DNA of 64,000 nt from Dendronephthya gigantea (Eukaryota), in assembly GCF_004324835.1 (NCBI RefSeq), contig NW_021163311.1:74208-138207 (forward strand), read 5' to 3'. Below the pieces are notes generated by a model that saw only the letters and a list, made by a program, of their open reading frames with translations, was not told the DNA's origin and searched no databases. The number at the start of each line of letters is the position of its first letter. Position 1 is the stretch's first letter. Made by a program: the position numbers and the translations under genes. Below, in pieces: positions 3,885 through 63,807 of this stretch.

Positions 3885-5267
3885 CTAGGAGAAGTTCCGG
3901 AAAGATGTAAGTATACATCCAGTATGTATATATATCAGTCTAGAGTTAGTTTAGTTTAGGTTTCCTCCTGTAGTAACACTGGATCAATAAGAGATGATCC
4001 TTACTGGACCTCTAGGAAGAACAGTTTAGTCATATATTACCTCATCTTGTAGCAGAAATACTAGGACTGGTGGTTTCATATTTTTTCGTGCCGACAGCAT
4101 TTCTGGAATGTTGATCGAATGTGTGATCCTCCCTGCTCTTTTGCGTAATCTCTCCTTCTCTATTTGCAAAAGTAATAATCATTTCAACTTATATTTTGCT
4201 AAACAAGAACAGAAGTTAAACGCTAGCCTTCTAAATAGTTTACTTTTGGGCAATTTTTACATCAGGGGCAGTTGTTCAAAGCTAGGTGGGCGCTAACCAT
4301 GGGTTAAAATGTTAATCCAGTGTTTTATAATCCAGTGTTGATGTGCTTCTGAGCCGCTGTTCGCTTCAAAACCTTTACAAAATATGACTTCTATCGGTCA
4401 AAAAAATATTTTTAAAAAAAAGATATTCAACTTTGTAAACGACCAATAAAAATTTAATGTAAAGATTTGCTTTAACCCAGGGTCAGAGCAGTTTCGAATA
4501 ATTTCGGGGTTTCGCAGAATTGTAAAAACAGGTTGGGAAACGAACTTTTAATCGGCTCAACGTTGTAGCAATTTGATAAAATGGCATTACAATGTTGACA
4601 GATTTAATAAAGAGGATATTTTCTATGCCACGTATAATATTTGTTTAATTTCTTTTAAAATTGAGAACGTTTTGCAAACCTCAAAAACATCTAAAAAGAA
4701 TGTTTACTATTTCATCTAAAAACAACATTAAAATGAAAAGATTTCTCGGGATACGCCGAGAAGAAAATGACACTTGAATCGAAGCTACTTTTGTATTCAT
4801 CTCAGTTATAATGGTGTTGACACTTATAACATTGTTGATAGCCGCATTATATTTTGAAATAACTCTTGTCGTTTTGTGTTTTGCAATCACCAAATACGAG
4901 CGATATAGAAAGGTTTGACCAAGGTTAACCGCAGTTTTTGTAAGATTATTTCATTTATTTCTGGACAGTACTGTAATTATAGCAACTTGAGAATACTGAT
5001 GGGTGACTGTTACATGAAGTCTACATGAGTGACTGGCGCTAAATAACGCAGGCATAGGTTAGCGGGCACGACAGAGAACAGAGAAACTCGAGCAAGATAA
5101 CTTTCGATCAGTTGACATTATTTTTTCTGTTCATATTTTTGTACAAAAGTTTTTCTGTATAAATAAAAATTGTTCATCGAACACACCAATGAGAACATTC
5201 ATTGTGACGATTAGTAGATGAGTTTCGAATAATATTTTTTTCTAACAAGTGAAGAGGTATATTATAC

Positions 5268-5498
5268 CTTTTGGTTTTGAAGCGCTATAGCATCGCCTAA
5301 AGGAACCCCTTGCCATAGGCGGTGGAGAGGGTTCCCGTGACTCGATGGATCTGGGGAGCAAGGGTGGAGCGGCGGGGGATGGCGTTTCTTGTTCTTCTTG
5401 TGGTTGTTCTTTATCCGTCTGAACTTGCTGACTGCTAAGAGACAACGCTACAACGTTCTCCGAAACCCCATCTTCTTTTTTCCTCCGTTTAGGAGAAT
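5268..5498 (-). CDS. Repeated phase-1/phase-1 exon module, copy 1
   Basis: Acceptor atcagcag and donor AAAAG|gtataata. The Met-start ORFs in the track here are artefacts. Confidence 0.4.
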
Positions 5499-5987
5499 CT
5501 GCTGATTTCAATGATAAAATAGAACTAAAGCGCGCCTCACACGAGAGCTGGTAGCTGAGGTAAAGACCTCGCAAGGCTGGTAATTTGCTCAACAAGTTAG
5601 AGGCTGTTTACATGAGCCCGGTTACCCGAGATTCAAGGCAGCGTGAGAGGACTTTGATATATTGTAACAAGTCTTTATGACACGAAACAAGCACATGCAA
5701 TTGTTGTGGTGATTATACGACTGCCAGGATCATGTTATCTGCTCATTTCAATACCTCAAAATCATCTCATGCTTCGTCGAACTCGGGTAACCGGGCTCAT
5801 GAAAACAGCCCCTTACTCTCGTGTGCGGATAGTTTCCGTGCGGAATTCGCCTCGAGAGGCAAGTTTCAAGAGTTTTTCTCTGGAAATAAAAAGCGTTCTT
5901 CGTATACAGCGAAGAGAACAGTCATTGAGACGATTAGTAGATGAGTTTCGAATAAGAATTTCTTTTAACAAGCGGAGAAGTATATAC

Positions 5988-6197
5988 CTTTTGTTTTAAC
6001 AGCCCCGAGGCTTTGCCTAGGGGAGCTGACGCTAAACGGTGACTTGGAGAGCAAGGGTGGAGCGGCCCCGGCAGGCATTTCTTGTTCTTTTTGTGGTTGC
6101 TGTCTATGCGTCTGAACTTGCTGAATACCAAACGAAAATCCTCCAAAGGTATCCTTCACCGAGACCTCATCTTCTTTTTTCTTCTGTTCAGGAGAGT
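5988..6197 (-). CDS. Repeated phase-1/phase-1 exon module, copy 2 (…TDSPEQKKKEDEVSVKDTFGGFSFGIQQVQTHRQQPQKEQEMPAGAAPPLLSKSPFSVSSPRQSLGAVKTK)
   Basis: Acceptor atcaacag|AC and donor AAAAG|gtatatac. Length is 2+207+1 nt. Confidence 0.4.
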
Positions 6198-7164
6198 CTG
6201 TTGATTTCAATGATAAAATAGAACTAAAGCGCTAAAGAATTCATATTAGGCACGGGAAATTCATCTTAGACAGGAAAGTTGATTGTAAAAACGCGTCTTA
6301 ATATGACTTGGAATGGATATAAGATTTACACGTGTGATGGGTCGGGTAATGCTAAAAAGAGTATCGTGATTATTACGATAATAATTTTGTTTATTTTCTC
6401 AGTTAAGCGCGCCTCACACGAGAGCTGCTAGCTGAGGTAAAGACCTCGCGAGGCTGTTAGCTCAGCAAGTTACTCTCGTGTGCGGATAGTTTTTCGTCAG
6501 GAATTCGTCTACATAGTTCGTCTACATAGTTCGTCGTGTGTTTTTACTCAGACGAAAGATCTGTCAGATGGATCATTTGTCCAGACGGATAATCCGTCTT
6601 TAGTATCATTTGGGCCAACATTTAATCGACTGTTATAGCACTGTCAAGTTGCGGTTCGGTTGCGGTCCACCGATAGGGAAAAAATACGACCGCGGTTGCC
6701 ATTCGCTTCTGAACGGAATGCTATGGACTGCTGAGAACAACAACACAATAACATCAAATCCTAAGAAATGTCTGTCAGACCGAGTTAGGCTGAGGTTTAA
6801 CGTCCGTCTCACCGCGGTTCGACCTCGGTTCAACTGCGATCAGACCGAGGTTTCACCAAGGTTCTGGACAGTACTATAATTATAGCAACTTGAGAATACT
6901 GATGAGTGACTGTTACATGAAGTTTACATAAGTGACTAACAATAACGCAGGCACAGGTCAGCGGGCTCGACGGAGCAGATGGAAACTCGAGCGAGATAAC
7001 TTCGGATCAGTTGTCAAATAATTTTTTGTGTTCATATTTTTGTACAAGAGTTTTTCTCTAGAAATAAAAAGAGTTCTTCGTACACAACAATGAGAATATT
7101 CATTGTGACGATTAGTACATGAGTTTCGAATAATATTTTTTCTAACAAGTGGAGAGGTATATAC

Positions 7165-7395
7165 CTTTTGGTTCTGAAGCGCTATAGCATCGCGTAAAGG
7201 AACTGCTTGCCACAGGCGGTGGAGGGGGATTCCGTGACCTGATGGATCTGCGGAGCAAGGGTGGAGCGGCGGGGGGTGGCGTTTCTTGTTCTTCTTGTGT
7301 TTGTTGTTTATCCGTCTGAACTTGCTGACTACCAAGAGACAACGCTACAACGTTCTCCGAAACCTCATCTTCTCTTTTCCTCCGTTCAGGAAAAT
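7165..7395 (-). CDS. Repeated phase-1/phase-1 exon module, copy 3
   Basis: Acceptor atcaacag and donor AAAAG|gtatatac. Confidence 0.4.
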
Positions 7396-8953
7396 CTGTT
7401 GATTTCAATGATAAAATAGAACTAAAGCGCGCCTCACACGAGAGCTGGTAGCTGAGGTAAAGACCTCGCGAGGCTGTTAGCTCAGCAAGTTACTCTCGTG
7501 TGCGGATAGTTTTTCGTGAGGAATTCGCCTCGAGAGGCAAGTTTCTATCGTGTGCGGATAGTTTTCAGGCCGCTGAGTTAACTGCCTCGCGAGGTCGTTA
7601 GCTCAGCTGATAGCTCTCTTGTGCGGCTTGCTTAAGGCTATGTGGTGCATGCGAGCGTCATTTTCGAGCGTTTTTTTAACAGTATTTACCCAGTGAGCCT
7701 ACATCGCCAAAGCGGTTTTCAGTATTCTTACCAGGTAAGGAAGGCTTGAAGTAGCTAGGTCTTCGTAGATTCTTTGGAACCTCATCTCGTATTAAGTGAG
7801 GTTTTGCTTCTCCATCAAAACCACGCCTGGAATCAGATTCCATTTCTATAAAATATGACAAAACGATGATGTGCATTGAATGCCCTAAATTCATAACTGC
7901 ATATTTCAGATTTCCATGCACGTCTTTCCATGAACATCGACGCTACATTAAGAAGCAGAATAGGCTACTTTGAGAATATCACTCTAACATCAGACCCAAC
8001 AACTTGTATACATTAAATTGATACGATGTATAATATAGGAACAGATTTTTCACCTGAATTCATATTTAGACATTTGGGACAAAAGGCTACCATTGTTAGG
8101 AGCTGTTTATATTGGAGCCAGGCTGGCCCGGCCGTGAAAACTATTCAAGTCTCTTAAAAGTTTAGAAAAACATCGGAAAGGGCGGTCGTGTGTTTCTCGA
8201 AAGATCTGTCATTATCTGCGGTTTCTTGTTGTTGGGGTTGTTTTAGTTTATGTGCTTTTGAACCACTGTTCGTTTCAACACTTTACAAAATAAGACTTCT
8301 TTCGGTCCAGAAAATATTTGTAATAAAGATATTCAACTTTGTAAACAGGCAATAAAAAAATTTAGTGCAAAGATTTGCTTTAACCCCGTTAGGGTTGGCC
8401 AAGCCGGGTTTTGAACGACCTGGCTCAGAGGATCGAACGTTGTAATGAGCAAGAGTTTTTCTCTAGAAATAACAAGTACGATCGTACTATAGTGGACCAG
8501 GAACTGCGTAACCGAGTTTAATTTCTGAACTGCATTGTATTTACAACAATGGAGAGGACAATGTATTTCTAATCGTTTGCGTTTACTTATATATAGGCTG
8601 AATATTAATGATATGTATACATTATTTGCTGCACATATAGGCACGAATTGCTTGTAACTTGCTCCAAAGGTCAAAAGTAAAAATTCGAACTCCGTCAATC
8701 GATGCGGAATATTGCTTATAGAATAATTGTGCCAAGTTTCATTCCGATCAAACAAGTAATGATAGAGCCTTAGGGTTTTTTTAAAGAGCGTAGCCCCCTA
8801 ACAACAACAACAACAACAGAAGATTAGCAGCGGTTAGGGACCACTTCCTGGTCCAAAAAGCGTTCCTCGTATACAGCGAAGAGAACATTCATTGTGACGA
8901 TTAGTAAACGAATTTCGAATAAGAATTTTTTTATCAAGTGGAGAGGTACATAC

Positions 8954-9163
8954 CTTCTGTTTTCAAAATCCCAAAGCTTCGTCTACGGTAGGCGATGCTA
9001 AACGGTGACTTGGAGAACAGGCGTGGAGCGGCGAGGGGTGGTGTTTCTTGTTCTTCTTGTGGCTGTTGTTTATCTGTCTGAACTTGCTGAATACCAAACG
9101 AAAATCCTCCAAAGGTATCGTTCTTGGACACCCCATCTTCTTCTTTCTTCTCTTCAGAAGAAT
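8954..9163 (-). CDS. Repeated phase-1/phase-1 exon module, copy 4
   Basis: Acceptor atcaacag and donor GAAG|gtatgtac. It is a P/Q/E-rich paralogue of the module at 5988-6197. Confidence 0.4.
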
Positions 9164-10379
9164 CTGTTGATTTCAATGATAAAATAAAACTAAAGCGCTA
9201 AAGAATTCATATTAGGCACGGGAAATTCATCTTAGACAGGAAAGTTGATTGTAAAAACCCGTCTTAATATGACTTGGAATGGATATAAAATTTACACGTG
9301 TGATGGGTCGGGTAATGCTAAAAAGGGTATCGTGATTATTACGATAATAATTTTGTTTATTTTCTCAGTTAAGCGCGCCTCACACGAGAGCTGGTAGCTG
9401 AGGTAAAGACCTCGCGAGGCTGTTAGCTCAGCAAGTTACTCTCGTGTGCGGATAGTTTTTCGTCAGGAATTCGTCTACACAGTTCGTCTAGATAGTTTGT
9501 CGTGTGTTTATACTCAGACGAATGAATCATCTGTCAGATGGATCATTTGTCCAGACGGATAATCCGTCTCTAGTATCATTTGGGCCAACATTTAATCGAC
9601 TGTCATAGCACTGTCCAGTTGCGGTTAGGTTGCGGTCGACCGATAAAAACCGCAGACGACCGCAAGGGAAAAAACACGATCGCGGTTGCCGTTCGCTTCC
9701 GAACGGAATGCTATGAACTGCTGAGAACAACAACACAATAAACATCCTAAGAAATGTCTGTCAGACCGAGTTAGGCTGCAGTTTAACGTCCATCTCACCA
9801 CGGTTCGACCTCGGTCTCGGCCTCGGTTCGACCGCGATCAGACCGAGGTGTGACCAAGGTTCTGGACAGTACTATAATTATAGCAACTCGAGAATACTGA
9901 TGAGTGACTGTTACATGAAGTTTACGTCAGTGACTAACAATAACGCAGGCACAGGTCAGCGGGCTCGACGGAGCACATGGAAACTCGAGCAAGATAACTT
10001 CGGATAGGTTGACATTATTTTACGTTTTCATATTTTTGTACAAGAGTTTTTCTCTTTAAATAAAAATCGTTCGTCGTACACAACAATGAGAATATTCTTT
10101 GTGACGATTAGTACATGAGTTTCAATAAAGAATTTTTTTCTAACAAGCGGAGAGGTACATACCTTTTGCTTCTGAAGCGTCATAGCATGGAATAATAGAG
10201 GAACTGGCGCTAAGGGGTGTATATATAGAGGGTGGAGAGGGTGGAGGGGAATGCCGTGACTCAACGCGCAGTGGTGAAGCGGTGGGGGATGCCATCTTGA
10301 CACTTCTCTTCGACTTGAGAGAATGCAACGATTCCAATGCTACAAATGCAAACAAAAGATGCTGTAGAAATTGTTGATG

Positions 10380-10680
10380 CAATTCGCGCTTGTGGACGCC
10401 CCATCCCCCCCTCCTGCACTTCTCGTTTCTACACCCCCTCCCCCCTCCTGCACTTCTCGTTTCTACACCCCCTCCCCCCTCCTGCACTTCTCGTTTCTAC
10501 ACCCCCTCCCCCCTCCTGCACTTCTCGTTTCTACACCCCTCCCCCCCTCCTGCACTTCTCGTTTCTACACCCCCTCCCCCCCTCCTGCACTTCTCGTTTC
10601 TACACCCCCTCCCCCCTCCTGCACTTCTCGTTTCTACACCCCCTCCCCCCCTCCTGCACTTCTCGTTTCTACAAAATTGT
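10380..10680. repeat. Minisatellite, about 9 copies of a 33-34-bp unit (cacccc(c)tcccccctcctgcacttctcgtttcta)
   Basis: Perfect to near-perfect tandem copies, which create the proline-rich artefact ORFs at 10337-10717. Confidence 0.9.
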
Positions 10681-10760
10681 TTCAGTAGATGAGTTTTTTC
10701 AATCGATTTGTAGATGAGTTTCGAATAATATTTTTTTCTAACAAGTGAAGAGGTATATAC

Positions 10761-11000
10761 CTTTTGGTTCTGAAGCGCTATAGCATCGCAGAAAGGAACT
10801 GCTTGGCATAGGCGGTAGAGGGGGATCCCGTGACCTGATGCCGGACTTGGGCGGCAAGGGTGGAGCAGCCGGGGATGGTGTTTCTTGTTCTTCTTGTGGT
10901 TTTTGTTTAGCCGTCTGAGCTTGCTCAATACCAAACGAAAATCCTCCAAAGGTATCGTTCTTGGACACCACGTCTTCTTCTTTCTTCTGTTCAGCAGAAT
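10761..11000 (-). CDS. Repeated phase-1/phase-1 exon module, copy 5 (…TDSAEQKKEEDVVSKNDTFGGFSFGIEQAQTAKQKPQEEQETPSPAAPPLPPKS…SEPK)
   Basis: Acceptor atcaacag and donor AAAAG|gtatatac. The exon and about 1.5 kb of flanking intron are tandemly repeated. I read it as the PARP4 low-complexity region. Confidence 0.4.
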
Positions 11001-11657
11001 CTGTTGATTTCAATGATAAAATAGAACTAAAGCGCTAAGAATTCATATTAGGCACGGGAAATTCATCTTAGACAGGAAAGTTGATTGTAAAAACCCGTCT
11101 TAATATGACTTGGAATGGATATAAAATTTACACGTGTGATGGGTCGGGTAATGCTAAAAAGGGTATCGTGATTATTACGATAATAATTTTGTTTATTTTC
11201 TCAGTTAAGCGCGCCTCACACGAGAGCTGGTAGCTGAGGTAAAGACCTCGCGAGGCTGTTAGCTCAGCAAGTTACTCTCGTGTGCGGATAGTTTTTTCGT
11301 GAGGAATTCGCCTCGAGAGGCAAGTTTCTATCGTGTGCGGATAGTTTTCAGGCTGAGTTAACTGCCTCGCGAGGTCGTTAGCTCAGCTGATAGCTCTCTT
11401 GTGCGGCGGGCTTAAGGCTACATGCGGTGCACGCTAGCTATAGCGTCATTTTCGAGCGATTTCAATATTCTTACCAGGTAAGGAGGACCTGCCGTAGGCA
11501 GAACTTCGCGAACGCGGTATTAGAACCTCATCTCTTATTGAGTGAGATATTTCTCCACCACCAAAAGTCTGTCTCAAATCAGGTACGATTTCTATAAAAT
11601 ACAACAAAACGATGATGTGTATTAATAATGCTCTAAATTAAAAACTGAATATTTCAG

Positions 11658-11896
11658 GGGCCGGTTGTATCAAGCCCGTTTAGCTTAAACGGTGGATAAG
11701 TTTAAAATAGAAAGCAATTCTATCGTTTTATTCAAGAAGCAAACTAAATGTTTTTAACCTTAATACAAAGATACTGTTTACAACTACATATTCAGTGCAT
11801 AATATTCAAGTTGACTCATTCAAGAGAGATGTAAGAGTGTTATTTAATTTTGACTTATCCACCGCTCAAACTCGTTTCGAACATGCACAACCGGAC
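11658..11896. mobile_element. MITE family A (about 235 bp; 42-bp TIR ggccggttgtatcaagcccgtttagcttaaacggtggataag)
   Basis: Long TIRs. Further copies are at 12428-12679, 34262-34500, 37861-38103, 53803-54040 and 54664-54902. Variant copies are at 49303-49548 and 49549-49735. Confidence 0.7.
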
Positions 11897-12095: not shown

Positions 12096-13041
12096 TTTCC
12101 GAGGAGAGAAGCAAGTTTTAATTTTGCTTGTGGATCATCTACCACTAGAAAGAAATATGGTGTAGAAATTCTTTGACAACAAAGCAAAAGTAGTTCATGG
12201 TTGACATGTATCGTATTTAGATCATACAGTTCCAGAATAACATCGGTGGTAAACCGCATAATATGGTAAACATACCATCATCAAAGCACATATCATCGCC
12301 TTCACTTTTATCATCATCATCATGTAAATCTGGGAAGAACAATTTGGAATTTCGAGAATCCACCTGACCTTATTTATGCCTCACTATATCACCTGAGTCA
12401 CTATTGATAGTTTCCGAGAACTTTCTTTGCAAGTCCTGGGGCCGGTTGTATCAAGCCCGTTTAGCTTAAACGGTGGATAAGTTCAAAATAGAAAGCAAGT
12501 TTATCGTTTTACTCAACAAGCAAACTAAATGTTTTCAACCTTAATACAAAGATACTGTTTACAACTACATATTCAGTGCATAATATTCAAGTTGACTCAT
12601 TCAAGAGAGATGTAAGAGTGTTATTTCATTTTGACTTATCCGCCGTTTAAGCTAAACGGGCTTGATACAACTGGCCCCAGATTTCCACGTCCTGTTTTCC
12701 ACCAGGCGAATTTATTCGCGTGACGCGAAGCGATATCTGAAATCGGGTTATTTGATTGCTTTGCGAAAAAAATCGCCGCGAAAAAGTAGAAACGCTTCTT
12801 AAGGCGGATTTCCACTTACAGCGAAATCGTTCGCTAGCGAAATATTTGCATATTTCCTTTTGAATTGAGAACAGTCAAGTCGAACTAATTTATTTATGCT
12901 GTTAAAATTCAAAAGAAAACATGCAAATATTTCGCTGGCGAACGATTTCGCTGTAAGTGGAAATCGGCCTTTACTTTTTATATGTTCGCGCGAAAGGGCT
13001 AACACCCCCCCGGTTTAAGTCAAACTTTTCAAGCTTCTTAC

Positions 13042-13952: not shown

Positions 13953-14068
13953 CTAAAAAGAAAAATGATGTGGAAATACAATAATCAAGAGTGAATATGG
14001 AGACAGAAACACAATAATTAAGAGTGGATATGGAGAGTTAAATTTTTCAGTTTCATTGCAAGCCTCAC

Positions 14069-14110
14069 CTAGATCTGGAGGCAAATCATCAAGTTCTTCA
14101 ACATCATGTC
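14069..14110 (-). CDS. Example 42-nt phase-1/phase-1 micro-exon (HDVEELDDLPPDLG) from the repeated exon array
   Basis: cacag|GACATGATG…CTAG|gtgaggc on the minus strand. It recurs at about 15145 with identical sequence. Confidence 0.4.
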   Translation of the reverse strand, partial: DMMLKNLMICLQI

Positions 14111-16926
14111 CTGTGCATAACAAAATGAAAATAACAAATGAATAAACCGAAAGCAGATAATAATTTAGATATACTCATAAGCTAGACACCGTGGATTTTA
14201 GTAAGAGTTGATTTCATAAGTATCATTTAAATGATTTTAAACTTTTAATTGCGTTTACATACGCACAAAAAACACGAAAGTGGAAAACAACCCTTAACCT
14301 ACAAGCTAATTTACAAAGATTTCGTACTGTCTTGCTTCAAAGCATGAAATTTAAATTCTTGCAAGTTCAGGGGCGTAGCCAAACGGGAAATGGGGTGTTC
14401 TTAAGTGAAACTTTTCAAGCTTCTTACCTGTTGAGAATGTGTTTATAATTGGAAATCTAGGACTTAAAGAACTTTCCCTTGGTGGCACTAAAAGAAAAAT
14501 GATGTGGAAATACAATAATCAAGAGTGAATATGGAGACTGAAATTCTTTAGTTTCATTGCAAGCCTCACCTATATCATAAATATCTTCAAAATCATGTCC
14601 TGTGTATAACGAAGTGAAAATAACAAATAAATAAACCGAAAGCAGATAATAGTTTAGATATACTCATAAGCTAGACACCGTGGAAATTGGTAAGAGTTGA
14701 TTTCATAAGTATCATTTAAATGATTTTAAACTTTTACGTGCGTTTAGGTACGTATAAAAAACACGAAAGTGGAAAACAGCCCTTAAGCTACAAGCTAATT
14801 TACAAAGATTTCGTACTGTTTTGCTTCAAAGCATGAAATTTAAATTCTCGCAAGTCCAGGGGCGTAGCCAAACGGGAAATGGGGTGTTTTTAAGTGAAAC
14901 TTTTCAAGCTTCTTACCTGTTGAGAATGTGTTCATAATTGGAAATCCAGGACTTAAAGAACGTTCCTTTGGTGGCACTAAAAAGAAAAATGATGTGGAAA
15001 TACAATAATCAAGAGTGAATATGGAGACAGAAACACAATAATTAAGAGTGGATATGGAGACAGAAATACAATAATCAAGAGTGAATATGGAGAGTTAAAT
15101 TTTTCAGTTTCATTGCAAGCCTCACCTAGATCTGGAGGCAAATCATCAAGTTCTTCAACATCATGTCCTGTGCATAACAAAATGAAAATAACAAATGAAT
15201 AAACCGAAAGCAGATAATAATTTAGATATACTCATAAGCTAGACACCGTGGATTTTAGTAAGAGTTGATTTCATAAGTATCATTTAAATGATTTTAAACT
15301 TTTAATTGCGTTTACATACGCACAAAAAACACGAAAGTGGAAAACAACCCTTAACCTACAAGCTAATTTACAAAGATTTCGTACTGTCTTGCTTCAAAGC
15401 ATGAAATTTAAATTCTTGCAAGTTCAGGGGCGTAGCCAAACGGGAAATGGGGTGTTCTTAAGTGAAACTTTTCAAGCTTCTTACCTGTTGAGAATGTGTT
15501 TATAATTGGAAATCTAGGACTTAAAGAACTTTCCCTTGGTGGCACTAAAAAGAAAAATGATGTGGAAATACAATAATCAAGAGTGAATATGGAGACTGAA
15601 ATTCTTTAGTTTCATTGCAAGCCTCACCTATATCATAAATATCTTCAAAATCATGTCCTGTGTATAACGAAGTGAAAATAACAAATAAATAAACCGAAAG
15701 CAGATAATAGTTTAGATATACTCATAAGCTAGACACCGTGGAAATTGGTAAGAGTTGATTTCATAAGTATCATTTAAATGATTTTAAACTTTTACGTGCG
15801 TTTAGGTACGTATAAAAAACACGAAAGTGGAAAACAGCCCTTAAGCTACAAGCTAATTTACAAAGATTTCGTACTGTTTTGCTTCAAAGCATGAAATTTA
15901 AATTCTCGCAAGTCCAGGGGCGTAGCCAAACGGGAAATGGGGTGTTTTTAAGTGAAACTTTTCAAGCTTCTTACCTGTTGAGAATGTGTTCATAATTGGA
16001 AATCCAGGACTTAAAGAACGTTCCTTTGGTGGCACTAAAAAGAAAAATGATGTGGAAATACAATAATCAAGAGTGAATATGGAGACAGAAATACAAGAAT
16101 CAAGAGTGGATATGGAGAGTTAAATTTTTCAGTTTCATTGCAAGCCTCACTTGCATCATGTCTTGTGCATAACAAAGTGAAAATAACAAATAAATAAACC
16201 GAAAGCAGATAATAATTTAGATATACTCATAAACTAGACACCGTGGATTTTAGTAAGAGTTGATTTCATAAGTATCATTTAAATGATTTTAAACTTTTAA
16301 TTGCGTTTACATACGCACAAAAAACACGAAAGTGGAAGACAACCCTTAAGCCACAAGCTAATTTACAAAGATTTCGTATTGTTTTCCTTTAAAACTTGAA
16401 ATTTAAACATTCACTGAAGCTGGGAGAGTCTATGGAAAGTCTGCGAAATACAGATAATGTACAAACGTCGACAGAATATCGGTCGACTTTTACGCTACTT
16501 TTATGACTATTTTTGGACTAAATTTAATGACGGCAGAAGTCAGTGAATATGGAGACAGAAGTTCAATAATCAAGAGTGAATATGGAGAAGAATGTTGTGA
16601 ATACCCAGAGAACATTCCAAAGAACATTTCTCTACGTCCATATCAAAACAAAGCTCGCTTGACCCTCCACCGAAACCATAAATTTCTTCATCACCTGTTC
16701 ATGCCAGAGAAAAATAAGTTAATAATTTAGATTTACTGCGTATAGACAATACGTTCAGTTCTGGAGTAAAATGATAATATATATGTTATTTACCAGATTG
16801 GAGGTCCGTATAGGGAAATATTTCCCAAGGTCTCAAAAACAGCCCGAGGCTGAAGGCCGAGGGACGTTTTTGAGACCGAGGGAAATATTTCCATATACAG
16901 ACCGACTAAACTGGTAAATAATAGAT

Positions 16927-17073
16927 TTATTTTTTTTTCTTGCGGTCCGAATTCATATTTTAGCGTTGGCTATGTGCTTTTAAATCTCGCGCGGTCCGTA
17001 CGGCCTCATACGGACCGCTCGCGTAGTCAATTAGATTGCAGGGAACGCTAAAATATGAATTCGGACCGCAAGG
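16927..17073. repeat. Near-perfect palindrome or hairpin with 29-bp arms and a nested inner palindrome
   Basis: cttgcggtccgaattcatattttagcgtt … aacgctaaaatatgaattcggaccgcaag. The inner palindrome is gcggtccgtacggcctcatacggaccgc. Confidence 0.8.
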
Positions 17074-17385
17074 AAAAAAATAATATCCAGTGCGAAACGT
17101 TTAGATTGTCATAAATTTTCTTTACCAGAAGAATCATATAATCGAGGCGAACAATCGAAATCCGTAAATTCGGGAGAAAAATTACGCACCATCAAACCAG
17201 GATATGCAGGCTGCAAAAAATATTATTCATGTGAAATATGGCAAAGAGATAAAATATTTTTTAAGAGTTTCAGCACATTTAGGGACAGAAAATCATCCTA
17301 AGCTATATACTATAAATTCTACTGAAATACACGAATGTAGGTTAGGATTATGTTTTAGATTAGGTTCATGGTTGATGAGGGTTAG

Positions 17386-18721: not shown

Positions 18722-19016
18722 CTGGAAAAAAGAAATAAGAGATGATCCTTACTGTACCTCTAGGAAGAACAGCTTAGAACTGATAGAGCTAACCACTATA
18801 AATAAAGTTAGTTTAGTTTAGGTTTCCTCCTGTAGTAACACTTGATCAATAAGAGATGATCCTTTCTGGACCTCTAGGAAGAACAATTTAGAACTGATAG
18901 AGTTATCCAGTATAAATAAAGTTAGTTTAGTTTAGGTTTCCTCCTGTATTAACACTGGATCAGTAAGAGATGATCCTTACTGGACCTCCACGAAGAACAG
19001 TTCAGATCTCTTTACC

Positions 19017-21794: not shown

Positions 21795-22110
21795 GTACAT
21801 GAGGTAGGGGGTGTAGAGGTGGCGTGTAAAGGTGGGGGTACAGAGATGGGGGTGTAGAGTTGGGGGTGCAGAATGGGGATGTAGATAGAGGTCGGGGTGT
21901 GGAGGTGGGGGTGTAGAGATGCGGTGTAGAGGTGGCGGCTCAGAGATGGGGGTGTAGAGGTGGGGGTGTAGAGATGCGGTGTAGAGGTGGCAGCTCAGAG
22001 ATGGGGGTGTAGAGTTGGGGTGTAGAGATGCGATGTATATAGGTGGGGGTACAGAGATGGGTGTGTAGAGGTGGGTGTGTAGAGGTGGGGGTGTAGGGGT
22101 GGGGTGTAGG
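21795..22110. repeat. G-rich minisatellite with a unit of about 15 bp (ggtgggggtgtagag and variants)
   Basis: Tandem degenerate copies. They are read through on the minus strand as a spurious proline-rich ORF. Confidence 0.8.
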
Positions 22111-22254: not shown

Positions 22255-22700
22255 AACACCACAGTCAATTTAGAGGAAACATAAACTAAACTAACTTTAT
22301 TTATACTGGATAGCTCTATCAGTTCTAAACTGTTCTTCCTAGAGGTCCAGTAAGAATCATCTCTTATTGATCCAGTGTTACTACAGGAGGAAACCTAAAC
22401 TAAACTAACTTTATTTATACTGGATAGCTCTATCAGTTTTAAACTGTTCTTCCTAGAGGTCCAGTAAGGATAATCTCTTATTGATCCAGTGTTACTACAG
22501 GAGGAAACCTAAACTAAACTAACTTTATTTATACTGGATAGCTCTATCAGTTCTAAACTGTTCTTCCTAGAGGTCCAGTAAGGATCATCTCTTATTCATC
22601 TAGTGTTACTACAGGAGGAAACCTAAACTAAACTAACTTCATTTACACTCGATAGCTCTATAAGTTCTAAACTGTTTTTACTATGAGCTTCACTATCGAT
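22255..22700. repeat. 118-bp satellite array (about 4 units), reverse orientation
   Basis: Same unit. Confidence 0.85.
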
Positions 22701-23372: not shown

Positions 23373-23382
23373 CTAGAGAAAG

Positions 23383-23905
23383 ATAGTTTAGTTTAGGTTT
23401 CCTCCTGTAGTAACACTGGATCAATAAGAGATGATCCTTACTGGACCTCTAGGAAGAACAGTTTAGAACTGATAGAACTATCCAGTATAAATAAAGTTAG
23501 TTTAGTTTAGGTTTCCTCCTGTGGTAACACTGGATCAATAAGAGATGATCCTTACTGGACCCCAAGGAAGAACAGTTTAGAACTGATAGAGCTATCCAGT
23601 ATAAATAAAGTTAGTTTAGTTTAGGTTTCCTCCTGTAGAAACACTGGATCAATAAGAGATGATCCTTACTGGACCTCTAGGAAGAACAGTTTAGAACTGA
23701 TAGAACTATCCAGTAGAAATAAAGTTAGTTTAGTTTAGGTTTCCTCTTGTAGTAACACTGGATCAATAACAGATGATCCTTACTGGACCTCTAGGAAGAA
23801 CAGTTTAGAACTGATAGAAATATCCAGTAAAAATAAAGTTAGTTTAGTTTAGGTTTCCTCCTGTAGTAACACTGGATCAATAAGAGATGATCCTTACTGG
23901 ATCTC
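23383..23905. repeat. 118-bp satellite array (about 4.5 units), forward orientation, in a PARP4 intron
   Basis: It has the same unit as 52680-53520. Confidence 0.85.
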
Positions 23906-51476: not shown

Positions 51477-51882
51477 CTAGAAATAAATGTATAAATAAAG
51501 TTAGCTTAGTTTAGGTTTCCTCCTGTAGTAACACTGGATCAATAAGAGATGATCCTTACTGGACCTCTAGAAAGAACAGTTTAGAACTGATAGAGTTATC
51601 CAGTATAAATAAAGTTAGTTTAGTTTAGGTTTCTTCCTGTAGTAACACTGGATCAATAAGAGATGATTCTTACTGGACCTCTAGGAGGAACAGTTTAAAA
51701 CTGATAGAGCTATCCAGTATAAATAAAGTTAGTTTAGTTTAGGTTTCCTCCTGTAGTAACACTGGATCAATAACAGATTATCCTTGCTGGACCTTTAGGA
51801 ACAGTTTAGAACTAAAATAAATCTTAGAGGAACCTATGTGATTTCAATTTTAGGAGAAAATAGCTGGCAAATATTTCCTTAC

Positions 51883-52043
51883 CTGGTCGAGGATGACAGC
51901 ACTTTATTGACAATGTTCAAGTATTCGTCTGTTGTCTTCGAAAGACTTTCAAGATGACAACCGCACGCTTTGTATTTTGCTTCGTCGCTGCTTCGCGTTG
52001 AGAAATTCGTCGCTTCGTTTACATTTAAGATGTCTTTAATTAA
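51883..52043 (-). CDS. PARP4: PARP4-like exon (LIKDILNVNEATNFSTRSSDEAKYKACGCHLESLSKTTDEYLNIVNKVL...)
   Basis: Acceptor ctttag and donor CAG|gtaagg, phase 0 to 2. It matches the PARP4 LIRDMVNVCETNL...AKYRALRCKIEHVEQNTEEFLRVRKEVL segment. Confidence 0.6.
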
Positions 52044-52325
52044 CTAAAGAAGAATAAAAATTAGCCTCGATAGTTTGGAAATCTATTTTTAACATTTTGT
52101 GTATTTTATTATATATCTTTGGGGAAAAAATAGTCAAATTTAACCAAAATTTTGGCGATATATAAAAAGAGCGGGAAAACTTCCGTCAATTTCCGGAATG
52201 ATACGAGAACTTCCCGCGCTTTCCGATACTAACTCGCGGCCTTTGATTGGCTTAGGAACGGATTTCACTTGTTCGCTCGACCAATCAGGTTATCTGTTCG
52301 GTAACGTTAGCCAATCAGAACGTAC

Positions 52326-52646
52326 CTGACAGAGATCCTGTTTTTCTGCAATAACTCGCTTTGTAGTTATTTCTTTCACGTATTCCTTGTTGTGTGGAAC
52401 GAGCGAGTAAAACTCCTGAGAATATTTCCCCAAATTTTCATCGGAAGCATCGCCTTTGTCGAGAATTTCTCGGATAGCTTGCAATACTCCTTCAGCTTTT
52501 GAGATATCCTCCAGTTTGAGCCGTTCAACCGGGTCGCACATTAGAGAACTCAGCTCTCCAATCGCTTCAGACGAAATGCTGTGGACAAGCGCTTTCACAG
52601 GAGGAGACAGATTTTCTTTGTTCAATACTTCACTGGATATATTGTT
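52326..52646 (-). CDS. PARP4: PARP4-like exon encoding the PARP alpha-helical (regulatory) domain
   Basis: 107 codons, phase 0-0, acceptor tttcag, donor CAG|gtacgt. The motif LKLEDISKAEGVLQAIREILDKG...SQEFYSLVPH corresponds to PARP4 ISLNDVSKAEGILLLVKAALKNG...EFYRLIPH. Confidence 0.7.
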
Positions 52647-52679
52647 CTGAAATGAGTCAAAATACAAACTTAAAATCAG

Positions 52680-53520
52680 TAAGCTAAACTAAACTAACTT
52701 TATTTATACTGGATAGCACTATCAGTTCTAAACTGTTCTTCCTAGAGGTCCATTAAGGATCATCTCCTATTGATCCAGTGTAACTACAGGAGGAAACCTA
52801 AACTAACTTTATTTATACTGGATAGCTCTATCAGTTCTAAACTGTTCTTCCTAGAGGCCCAGTAATGATCATCTCTTATTGATCCAGTGTTACTACAGGA
52901 GGAAAACTAAACTAAACTAACTTTATTTATACTGGATAGCTCTATGAGTTCTAAACTGTTCTTCCTAGAGGTCCAGTAAGGATCATCTCTTATTGATCCA
53001 GTGTTACTACAGGAGGAAACCTAAACTAAACTAACTTTATTTATACTGGATAGCTCTATCAGTTCTAAACTGTTCTTCCTAGAGGCCCAGTAATGATCAT
53101 CTCTTATTGATCCAGTGTTACTACAGGAGGAAAACTAAACTAAACTAACTTTATTTATACTGGATAGTTCTATCAGTTCTAAACTGTTCTTCCTAGAGGT
53201 CCAGTAAGGATCATCTCTTATTGATCCAGTGTTACTACAGGAGGAAACCTAAACTAAACTAACTTTATTTATACTGGATAGCTCTATCAGTTCTAAACTG
53301 TTCTTCCTAGAGGTCCAGTAAGGATCATCTCTTATTGATCCAGTGTTACTACAGGAGGAAACCTAAACTAAACTAACTTTATTTATACTGGATAGCTCTA
53401 TCAGTTCTAAACTGTTTTTCCTAGAGGCCCAGTAAGGATCATCTCTTATTGATCCCGTGTTACTACAGGAGGAAACCTAAACTAAACTAACTTTATTTAT
53501 ACTGGATAGCTCTATCAGTT
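52680..53520. repeat. 118-bp satellite array (about 7 units), reverse orientation
   Basis: The unit is approximately aaataaagttagtttagtttaggtttcctcctgtagtaacactggatcaataagagatgatccttactggacctctaggaagaacagtttagaactgatagagctatccagtat. Other arrays are at 18725-19010, 22255-22700, 23383-23905, 51490-51830, 62215-62395 and 62990-63170. A single unit is at 3930-4030. Confidence 0.85.
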
Positions 53521-53541
53521 CAAAACCTTTTCATGACTTAC

Positions 53542-59229: not shown

Positions 59230-59771
59230 TCAACGTACACTCATACTAGCCCTTACAATCTGACCTTCCCATTCACCACGCCTCTTTATCCAGATTTTTG
59301 GATAAAATCCTATTTTTAAAAAGTTAACCCGAAACTTGATGTGTTCAACATAGACGTCTAGTATATCTCCTGCTGCAATCAGTGGATGTAAATACTTGCA
59401 ATGTTCAGAAGCTATATATCCAACATTTTCCCATTGAGTTCCATAATGAAGATCAATAGCAATTGCATTTTGGTCCCGAGGATTCTCCGGCTCTGGTCTT
59501 AGTCGAACATTTACTGATTCATTATATTCAAGGGCAAGATATGCCTGTTCCAGATGATGTTGGTAACTTTGTTCATGAGCAGCTCCAATGCACTTGAATG
59601 GTAGAGCATGAGTGATTTCTTCCTCATCACTTTCAACTTCTTCACTTTCATCTTCTTCACTGTCCTCATTACTAATTTGCTCATTGACAGTTTCATTTCT
59701 TTTACTTTGTTCATCCCCATTCTCCTCTCCAGCATTTTCTAGTTCAGCTAAATGCTCAAGTAGATCTCTTT
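59230..59771 (-). CDS. HIRAN-domain gene, exon 3: acidic linker followed by the HIRAN domain (…VNVRLRPEPENPRDQNAIAIDLHYGTQWENVGYIASEHCKYLHPLIAAGDILDV…)
   Basis: Acceptor ctttatag, in frame with exon 2, stop at 59230. It carries the HIRAN signature (V.L.REP.NP.D.NAI.V...G.lGYi....A..L.PLid.G). Confidence 0.6.
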
Positions 59772-59971
59772 CTATAAAGCAAAACAAAAAAATGCCCGTC
59801 TAATACTGTTATGTCTATAAATAAAAACTCACTAGTAATTTCTAAAAATAGAATTGAACGACTCTGAGATTAATTTTTACTTTAAGCATGAAACCATTTA
59901 TAACAAAGCATGTGTAAAGAAAACATTCGTAAACAGAAATGAACTATCAAAACTTTATACAGTAACTATAC

Positions 59972-62162: not shown

Positions 62163-63420
62163 CTGGATAAAGATTATGGAGGAATCAATATTCATCCAAT
62201 GTCACCACAGGAGGAAATCTGATCAATCCAGAATAGCTTTACCAGTTCTAAACTGTTCTTCCTAGAGGTCCAGTAAGGATCATCTCTTATTGATCCAGAG
62301 TTACTACAGGAGAAAACCTAAACTAAACTAACTTTATTTATACTGGATAGTTCTATCAGTTCTAAACTGTTCTTCCTAGAGGTCTGTTACATGATACATA
62401 ATATCATGTAATTAGATCGTATAATAATATAGAGTCATATACTTAGCTAGTATAAATATATATACCTTTTAGTTAGTTAACCTTATTCTCGCAAGACTTA
62501 CATGCATGAGTAAGCAAAATAGGTATAAGCATGAGCAGGCAATAGCTATGTCCACGCCTAACCGCAAGTGCGTAGCTTGGTGTCAACCACAAAGCCATGG
62601 TAGCATGCGCTACAACGCTCTGAATTGCGTAGGGGAAATTACTTGTTGTTTTGCAGTTTCTCTTAGCAAGCGTATATAAGTCGATCCGAGCGCAAATAGA
62701 TATAAGCAAGCGATTACAGCCATTACAAGATGCCATAACTGACGATGCTAATTTAAGCTGACGGCTGACCAAATGAACATTATAACATAGATGGATGTAT
62801 GATGGATTTTCAACTATGGAGCTATTCACTGTTACTCTTACCAGATAAGTTAATGTTAGGAAATAGGATATTGTTAATGTGCTTTGTAAAGTTTAAGTTG
62901 TTTATTGCTCACTATAATTCACTAAATGTTTTAAAATGCTCAACACTGTTCTCATTTTTTGTTCGTTCTCACCGGCGAACGTAACAGGTCTAGTAAGGAT
63001 TATCTCTTATTGATCCAGTGTTACTACAGGAGGAAACCTAAACTAAACTAACTTTATTTATACTGGATAGTTCTATCAGTTCTAAACTGTTCTTCCTAGA
63101 GGTCCAGTAAGGATCATCTCTTATTGATCCAGTGTTACTACAGGAGGAAACCTAAACTAAACTAACTTTAATAATTTTCTTGTATGATTGCATGGCGACT
63201 TTAGTAATTATAATAACTTGTAGGTACACCACGTAAGTATTAAATACTGCAAAGCTTTCGGTCCGTTAACCCGGACCTTCATCAGTGCAATTACTTGAAT
63301 ACACGTTTGCGCGTCACTTAAATATCATGTTAGTCGTGATTAGTTTGCTCGCGCTATTAATTAAACGGTTTCATTTAATTAAGTTCTAACTAATGCGCGC
63401 GCCCTAGACAAGTATTTGAC

Positions 63421-63807
63421 TAAGAGACACCGAAAAGAGCACGCCACGTACTATTAAGTGGCTTTCCCTCTTGGACGATAGTTTGATGTTTATAAATTTC
63501 AATAGATTCTCTCATTTTACGAGAGACAGTAAACTTATCGTTTGCTAAAATGGTAGCATCGTTCCATTTAATGCGATGATCATAAGTCCATGCATGGTGA
63601 GCTACTGCAGACTTATCCAGTTTACCTTTCTCGCAGTTCGTCTTATGTTCTTTAAGACGTATTGAGAGATTTCTACCGGTCTCTCCAATGTAAACCAAAC
63701 CACATTCACATGGAATGCGGTACACACCAGGTTTCTGTTGTTCATCGACGCCATCCTTGTGTGTGTAAAGAGCGCGAAACAATTTGTTATTGCTAGAACA
63801 TAAGACG
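63421..63807 (-). mobile_element. 5'-truncated Penelope-like element fragment carrying the GIY-YIG endonuclease domain
   Basis: ORF 63420..63782 contains GVYRIPCECGLVYIGETGRNLSIRLKEH, a GIY-YIG core of the type that follows the RT in Penelope-like retroelements. It is the left arm of an inverted duplication. Confidence 0.6.

Follow-up and report, generated by a model that had tools for sequence, protein, structure and literature searches.

Tandem arrays of short symmetric candidate exons at the linker position of a putative PARP4 gene in Dendronephthya gigantea

In vertebrate PARP4 (vault PARP), the linker is disordered, is longer than 300 amino acids and is encoded by one large exon (exon 30 in human), a region with variable sequence and length and with recurrent positive selection, the ratio of nonsynonymous to synonymous substitution rates (dN/dS) between human and rhesus being 1.75 (PMC4038475). 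Where symmetric exons derive from internal tandem duplication, they code preferentially for disordered segments (Schad, Kalmar & Tompa 2013, PMC3632108). Here we describe a locus of Dendronephthya gigantea (NCBI RefSeq assembly GCF_004324835.1, contig NW_021163311.1, positions 74,208 to 138,207; this 64,000-nt stretch is called the window below), in which the minus strand appears to carry a PARP4 orthologue whose linker would be encoded by tandem arrays of short exons, each of them symmetric with phase 1 at both ends (phase 1-1). Further arrays of symmetric exons include those of titin PEVK and of the nebulin type, while clusters of the Dscam type consist of tandem alternative exons and use docking-site/selector RNA pairing. 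Exons that evolve faster than introns are known from snake-venom PLA2, conotoxins and MHC, with intron homogenisation.

The linker of this locus shares the position of the vertebrate exon 30 region, between the ITIH-like region (exon T0) and the MVP-interaction domain (exons X, Y and Z), and both are of the disordered type, variable in length and evolving at or above the neutral rate. The vertebrate linker is one large exon, whereas about 22 short phase 1-1 exons in tandem arrays were found here. No sequence similarity between the human PARP4 linker and the array linker was detected in the comparison of the conceptual tail, and selection is judged here from paralogous copies in one genome and not from orthologues as in the vertebrates. 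Like the duplicated exons of Schad et al., adjacent array exons are homologous, 1-1 symmetric, multiples of three in length and of low complexity, rich in P, S, E and K. Unlike that general case, the predicted exons outpace their introns, and the arrangement is a mosaic with chimeric copies. In the PLA2, conotoxin and MHC families, exon divergence between paralogues likewise exceeds intron divergence with the frame kept, but those paralogues are separate genes, whereas here they are exons within one gene. The growth of disordered regions by duplication of symmetric exons has already been described, and the noteworthy point of this locus is the contrast between exon and intron rates.

We consider that the array exons are genuine coding cassette exons of PARP4, with a probability of about 0.65. 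On this reading, the disordered linker between the ITIH-like part (VIT/VWA, to T0) and the MVP-interaction domain would be encoded by the short-exon arrays, which would have arisen through local tandem duplication of exon-plus-intron units. Since every exon is phase 1-1 and its length divisible by three, unequal crossing-over that duplicates or deletes units would lengthen or shorten the linker and leave the frame intact. Once duplicated, the exon bodies have diverged at about 2.6 times the rate of the introns copied with them, with no stops or frameshifts and with the splice sites fixed, as is to be expected if the sequence is translated and is under selection that is diversifying or at least not conservative. 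The one strong evolutionary clue to the function of vaults and of PARP4 is the adaptive evolution of the disordered region before the vault-binding part in mammals and birds (PMC4038475). If the reading holds, rapid turnover of the linker would be an ancient and general property of PARP4 and not a vertebrate peculiarity, the locus would provide a natural system for variation of linker length and sequence in steps of whole exons, and it would give a clean, datable example of how a disordered region grows through tandem duplication of symmetric exons.

The host gene and its exon arrays

Among the minus-strand open reading frames (ORFs), Pfam matches were obtained to PARP_reg at 52667-52290 (E=4.6e-10) and to VIT at 24203-23904 (E=2.7e-9). 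The match to the C-terminal end of the PARP catalytic domain at 50350-50045 (E=7.3e-5) lay below Pfam's cut-off because the ORF holds only the last 30 residues. A VIT-VWA query retrieved proteins of up to 71% identity that carry Pfam domains of the VIT, VWA and PARP families and bear the name PARP4 at their source, and the exons were colinear with those of a related PARP4 locus (L001) down to 17.55 kb. The host gene is identified from these matches as a PARP4 orthologue on the minus strand, which would probably form one transcript across the window.

The conserved exons flanking the arrays also fit PARP4. Upstream, exon T0 (17814-17515, minus strand, as are all exons described below) carries an FTSFVAIEKRE motif and an acidic tract, matches residues 1153-1218 of human PARP4 and serves as the upstream anchor; the candidate exon T0b (17210-17126, phase 0 to 1) would set the frame for the array exons. 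Downstream, exon X (4159-4041, phase 1 to 0) begins the conserved C-terminal domain, exon Y (3884-3782, phase 0 to 1) belongs to the MVP-interaction domain, and exon Z (3350-3082), the last coding exon, ends with the stop codon TAA at 3084-3082 and matches human residues 1621-1704. The joined X, Y and Z peptide matched residues 1584-1704 (of 1724) of human PARP4 with E=2.4e-4, and the human MVP-interaction domain comprises residues 1570-1724 (PMC10450202). In one search, the whole conceptual tail matched human PARP4 colinearly at 1153-1218 and 1621-1704 (E=3.1e-12). A preliminary description of this DNA had regarded the repeated modules as the tail of a large gene. They do lie inside one large minus-strand gene, PARP4, but because the conserved MVP-interaction exons X, Y and Z lie downstream they would form an internal linker and not a terminal tail.

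Between 16.7 and 5.3 kb, four putative arrays of phase 1-1 exons were recognized, of which the E/C array (11.6-5.3 kb) is the largest; the others came from a simple scan for splice sites and phase together with reading of the sequence. The P/Q array of alternating micro-exons (16034-13893) contains five Q exons of 60 nt and four P exons of 30 or 42 nt. An R/S exon pair, duplicated once (13382-11983), consists of R1 (13382-13317), S1 (13179-13042), R2 (12329-12276) and S2 (12138-11983). A single exon T1 upstream of the E/C array is tentative. Within the P/Q array, 14028-15033 repeats 15085-16091 over 1,006 bp with 100% identity except for one 1-nt indel; this may reflect either an assembly artefact or a duplication of very recent date, in which case polymorphism of copy number would be predicted.

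In total, 22 candidate array exons of 30-240 nt were found between 16.7 and 5.3 kb, all with lengths divisible by three, and they would contribute 825 codons without a stop, 70% of them for disorder-promoting residues. Joined end to end, all 27 exons read as a single ORF of 1117 codons, closed by the natural stop. The phases close at both ends of the arrays, since T0b has a phase-1 donor, X has an acceptor of the same phase, and X then restores phase 0. Because every array exon is symmetric, any subset of them, even none, stays in frame. Phase 1-1 was also the most frequent of the nine phase classes among minus-strand candidates, with 40 exons against 12-34 in the other eight (mean about 19), while the classes of the plus strand held 3-13 each (mean about 9). 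AG and GT were present at every boundary in all copies of the six exon families, and the flanking consensus was constant within each family. The C, R, S, Q and P pairs were 74-93% identical.

Reading of the sequence from 11,500 to 4,800, with a boundary search, gave five intact exon-like copies, termed E exons: E1 (11000-10761, 240 nt), E3 (9163-8954, 210 nt), E4 (7395-7165, 231 nt), E5 (6197-5988, 210 nt) and E6 (5498-5268, 231 nt), all phase 1-1. Their peptides were 59-64% identical to that of E1 and their DNA 81-91% identical within type, and they are true paralogues and no chance matches. Two types with unrelated 3' thirds can be distinguished, type A (E4 and E6) and type B (E3 and E5), and E1 is a B/A chimera whose first 157 nt are of type B and whose 3' part is of type A. 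A sixth copy, E2 (10339-10163), is tentative; the donor and about 135 nt of the type-A 3' part persist in it, and its 5' half has been replaced beside a 34-bp minisatellite in the intron between E1 and E2 (10406-10673, 7.8 copies), which marks where that half was lost. The sense strand of this minisatellite is rich in G, and its pre-mRNA copy could fold into G-quadruplexes. A further duplicated exon, represented by C1 (11591-11475, 117 nt) and its paralogue C2 (7845-7732, 114 nt), both phase 1-1, was absent from the preliminary description and belongs to one array with the E exons, C1 opening the first higher-order unit and C2 the second. The array thus runs C1-E1-(minisatellite)-E2-E3, then C2-E4-E5, then E6.

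Such an arrangement is not the uniform head-to-tail repetition of a unit of about 1.8 kb that had been proposed. The start-to-start spacings of the intact exons were 1837, 1768, 1198 and 699 nt, with the sixth copy 661 nt past E1, and self-BLAST showed a mosaic of repeated blocks at offsets of about 1.84, 1.9 and 2.97-3.0 kb, in addition to the two exon types and exon C. The intron block directly upstream of E1 (11001-11313) recurs before E3 (9164-9476) and E5 (6198-6510) with 98-99.7% identity, and the block downstream of the type-A exons (4959-5293) has copies at 6862-7205 and 9860-10188 with 85-89% identity. Five preserved copies had been reported with a degenerate sixth; the five are indeed intact, but the sixth is remodelled rather than degenerate, being open in phase 1-1 over 177 nt from a candidate new acceptor. 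The reported exon length of about 210-240 nt agrees with our measurements, as does the common acceptor atcaRcag, which was found within the context tcattgaaatcaRcag before every intact copy, as atcagcag in E6 and as atcaacag in the others. The donor was less uniform than described: GT follows all five intact exons, with CAAAAG|gtatatac in E1, E4 and E5, but CAGAAG|gtatgtac in E3 and CAAAAG|gtataata in E6. All five intact copies are open in the phase 1-1 frame, so that any copy number would stay in frame as had been stated, and this is the only stop-free frame of each except in E1, where frame 0 is open too. The FGGFSFG motif, thought to be conserved across the modules, occurs only in E1, E3 and E5, and its place is taken by VVALSLG or VVALSLS in E4 and E6. 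With one FGGFSFG per exon in three of the five E exons, and isolated FGGG and FGLF in T1, C1 and R1, a region of the FG-nucleoporin type was rejected as an identity for the array.

Coding status of the array exons

The reading of the array exons as real coding exons under diversifying or relaxed selection draws on their indels, their lack of stops, their invariant splice dinucleotides and their contrast with the introns. The indels between exon paralogues were 12, 27, 9, 6, 9, 12, 6 and 3 nt, plus the 21-nt difference between types A and B, and all of them are multiples of three, while those of the introns were mixed (1, 2, 4, 19, 33 nt and others). When the observed substitutions that distinguish the paralogues are placed at random, the probability that they create no stop is about 0.0014, for substitutions alone. 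Between duplicated units, mismatches amounted to 126/882 (14.3%) in exons and 166/2893 (5.7%) in introns, an approximately 2.6-fold difference (Fisher P about 8e-15, computed with 167/2893). The excess in the exons was clear in seven of the eight pairs and marginal for Q3/Q2 (93.3% identity against 94.3%). In the comparison of E1, E3 and E5, only 8 variable columns were found in 299 nt of upstream intron, against 35 in the first 157 nt of the exon, and most of the exon substitutions were private to one copy. Hypermutability of CpG was rejected as the cause, since the excess remained at non-CpG sites (12.9% in exons and 4.9% in introns), and conversion that brings in variants from the alternative exon type was rejected too, as it explains only 4 sites (of the pattern aabbb) of about 54 variable ones. 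These results indicate that the array exons would have to stay translatable, with an amino-acid sequence that may be free, or even favoured, to change.

As an alternative to direct positive selection, the introns may have been homogenised by gene conversion from which the exons were exempt. Synonymous sites, too, diverged above the intron rate, as this alternative would have it: the proportions of nonsynonymous and synonymous differences (pN and pS) were 0.161 and 0.132, against an intron divergence of 0.057. Selection for amino-acid change is not cleanly separable from intron homogenisation because the synonymous sites are elevated as well. We infer that selection rather than homogenisation probably lies behind the contrast, and in either case the exon boundaries would matter to selection.

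Several observations weigh against the coding cassette exons. The differences at codon positions 1, 2 and 3 numbered 52, 44 and 37, with no excess at the third position, and the pooled pN/pS of 1.22 was not significantly different from 1, so there is no sign of purifying selection on the amino-acid sequence; and since pS itself exceeds the intron divergence, selection at the amino-acid level alone is insufficient for the exon excess. The tract before the E-exon acceptors is interrupted by purines (tcattgaaatcaacag). T0 is connected to the arrays through the candidate T0b, which has no homology support, and the donor of T1 is weak. Read-through of T0 past its donor gives two codons and then TAA TAA, overlapping an AATAAA (17515-17500), and T0 could alternatively end the protein. 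In L001 (71% identity over VIT-VWA), translated comparison detected neither the tail nor the MVP-interaction domain, and in a second related locus, L002 (70% identity), the T0-like ORF stops after the acidic tract, as judged by inspection only. Homologues of the modules were not found either: the concatenated E peptide (373 aa) had no match in a word-indexed search of 5.8 billion proteins, which is a weak negative because the other matches in that database were all under about 630 aa and long annotated proteins may be missing, and a full HMMER search of 1.84 billion representatives with a profile built from the five E peptides yielded no genuine homologue. Its one match, P0241, was rejected as spurious, being a translated tandem repeat or satellite that matches just QTQESPSPAAPSL ten times.

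L001 and L002 are intron-poor and appear to end at the point that corresponds to the T0 read-through; if the T0 donor were left unused, the result might be a short isoform of PARP4 in which both linker and vault-binding domain are missing.

The main rival to coding cassette exons holds that the modules are pseudo-exons, duplicated non-coding sequence in one long PARP4 intron (17.1-4.2 kb), with T0b or T0 joined directly to X. Skipping all of the modules would keep the frame, phase 1 being common to the donor of T0b and the acceptor of X, and the missing protein homologues, a pN/pS near 1 and the lack of codon-position bias would be natural for such sequence. Composition-biased sequence is moreover often open in several frames, as the open frame 0 of E1 illustrates. 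Neutral pseudo-exons, however, should diverge like their host introns, whereas the divergence of the modules was 2.6 times higher and changed sharply at the splice sites; nor would they be expected to show nine or more indels that are all multiples of three, no stop at a chance of about 0.0014, and AG and GT invariant in all copies of six exon families. We regard pseudo-exons as unlikely for these reasons. If the exons were unexpressed, the finding would shrink to a duplicated intronic repeat with an unexplained pattern of divergence.

It is very improbable that the array is a separate gene, for example short genes starting at the 'ATGs' of the modules, or a repetitive or mobile element unrelated to PARP4. 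An ORF finder did give ORFs of 80-117 aa over each module, and intronless genes on the same strand sit between other exons of the PARP4 locus. These ORFs, however, begin at a TTG in the conserved acceptor region (ttgaaatcaacag) and not at ATG, and each meets a stop just beyond the conserved GT donor. The apparent Met-initiated genes are therefore artefacts of ORFs called with the bacterial code, which start at TTG inside the 3' end of the intron, as the preliminary description had correctly suspected. The modules were found nowhere else in the window, and Pfam gave nothing meaningful for the E peptide, with no match to a transposase, reverse-transcriptase or nucleoporin family. In Rfam, the stretch 2.5-18 kb gave no match within the modules and only sub-threshold matches of palindromes to microRNA families at 12.8 and 16.8 kb, and a metagenome scan with the conserved acceptor sequence gave 0 matches. 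The coding cassette exons, which would be spliced into the PARP4 mRNA, are preferred over both of these explanations.

Intronic hairpin elements and a possible role in exon choice

Each of the five intact E exons has a 75-nt hairpin element, V1, 27-235 nt upstream of its acceptor, at 11233-11301 (E1), 9397-9465 (E3) and 6431-6499 (E5) within the conserved intron blocks, at 7422-7519 before E4, and as a partial copy at 5535-5576 before E6. An inverted copy, V2, is located at 11352-11420, about 55 nt downstream of the C1 donor, and again at 7572-7640, about 92 nt downstream of the C2 donor. V2 is 83-84% complementary to V1 over 64 nt, and the elements are also self-palindromic. The predicted V2:V1 duplex has about 54 bp and a free energy (dG) of about -90 kcal/mol, near-equal for all five V1 copies and about 30 kcal/mol better than the separate hairpins.

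This layout resembles that of Dscam, with duplicated exons each preceded by an intronic element complementary to one downstream of the upstream exon. In contrast to Dscam, the elements are about 64 nt long, are themselves hairpins and include two 'docking' copies; the Dscam exons encode an Ig half-domain while those described here encode disordered sequence; and, because all exons of the E array are symmetric, exclusivity is not required for the frame. The exons might then be real and act as combinatorial or mutually exclusive cassettes, pairing of V2 with V1 choosing the E exon and giving many linker isoforms. Such choice would agree with the position of V2 after the C1 and C2 donors and of V1 before every intact E exon, with the near-equal gain of the predicted duplexes across the V1 copies, with the 97-100% identity of V1 beside exons that are 81-91% identical, and with the symmetry of the exons, which puts any selection in frame. 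Nevertheless, V1 and V2 resemble a foldback repeat of the miniature inverted-repeat transposable element (MITE) type that was merely copied along with the units, strong conservation spans a whole block of about 300 nt and not V1 alone, near-identical V1 copies carry no covariation power, and a perfect-like duplex of 54 bp far exceeds known docking/selector pairs. The layout fits a docking-site/selector system and a co-duplicated foldback repeat equally, and we think cassette choice by V2-V1 pairing quite doubtful. It is a distinctly remote conjecture that all four arrays form a diversity-generating cassette system of an innate-immunity-linked protein, in which pairing of V2 docking with V1 selector elements would pick among fast-diverging symmetric exons and let a single cnidarian PARP4 gene supply a repertoire of linkers in the vault lumen, the faster divergence of exons than of introns then being the mark of a host-pathogen conflict older than the cnidarian-bilaterian split.

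Other features of the window

The PARP catalytic exon (50.0 kb) and the VIT exon (24.2 kb) are separated by about 26 kb containing six RING-TRAF-Kelch ORFs on the same strand. These belong to a tandem array at 25188-47826 (minus strand) of about six intronless RING-TRAF-zinc-finger-Kelch genes of 534-536 aa, some truncated or split. The PARP catalytic and VIT parts are contiguous in related loci, and the Kelch array here is either nested in an intron of about 26 kb or splits the gene. The RING-TRAF-Kelch family is hugely expanded, with 1683 matches at E<=1e-20, and its best named matches, at about 70% identity, are from Paramuricea clavata, which points to an octocoral as the probable source of the locus.

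Several repeat families occur in the PARP4 introns and elsewhere in the window. A 114-bp repeat, satellite-like or MITE-like, forms short tandem arrays in both orientations in several PARP4 introns and beyond (3941-4029, 18734-19006, 22273-22683, 23379-23905, 51490-53525 and 62233-63170). The region 21807-22109, in a PARP4 intron, is a minisatellite of the GGGGGTGTAGAG type with 14/41-bp units and a G/C strand bias. Palindromic MITE-like elements at 12801-12971 and 16776-17087 gave sub-threshold Rfam matches to the MITE-derived microRNA families MIR7504 and mir-7973 on both strands. A dispersed repeat of 220-250 bp is present at 11655-11872 and 12438-12688, with copies near 34.3, 38.0, 49.4, 53.9 and 54.7 kb.

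An ORF with a GIY-YIG nuclease domain (63420-63782, minus strand), possibly a fragment of a Penelope-like retroelement, and an ORF with a HIRAN domain after an acidic tract (59230-59787, minus strand) were also observed, and neither is related to the exon array. At the other end of the window, the plus-strand ORF at 44-370 has an N-terminus resembling a signal peptide (MNAHQNMAVSRRELCLKLLILLSILQTTIVSAEDL) and could be the first exon of a gene convergent with the 3' end of PARP4.

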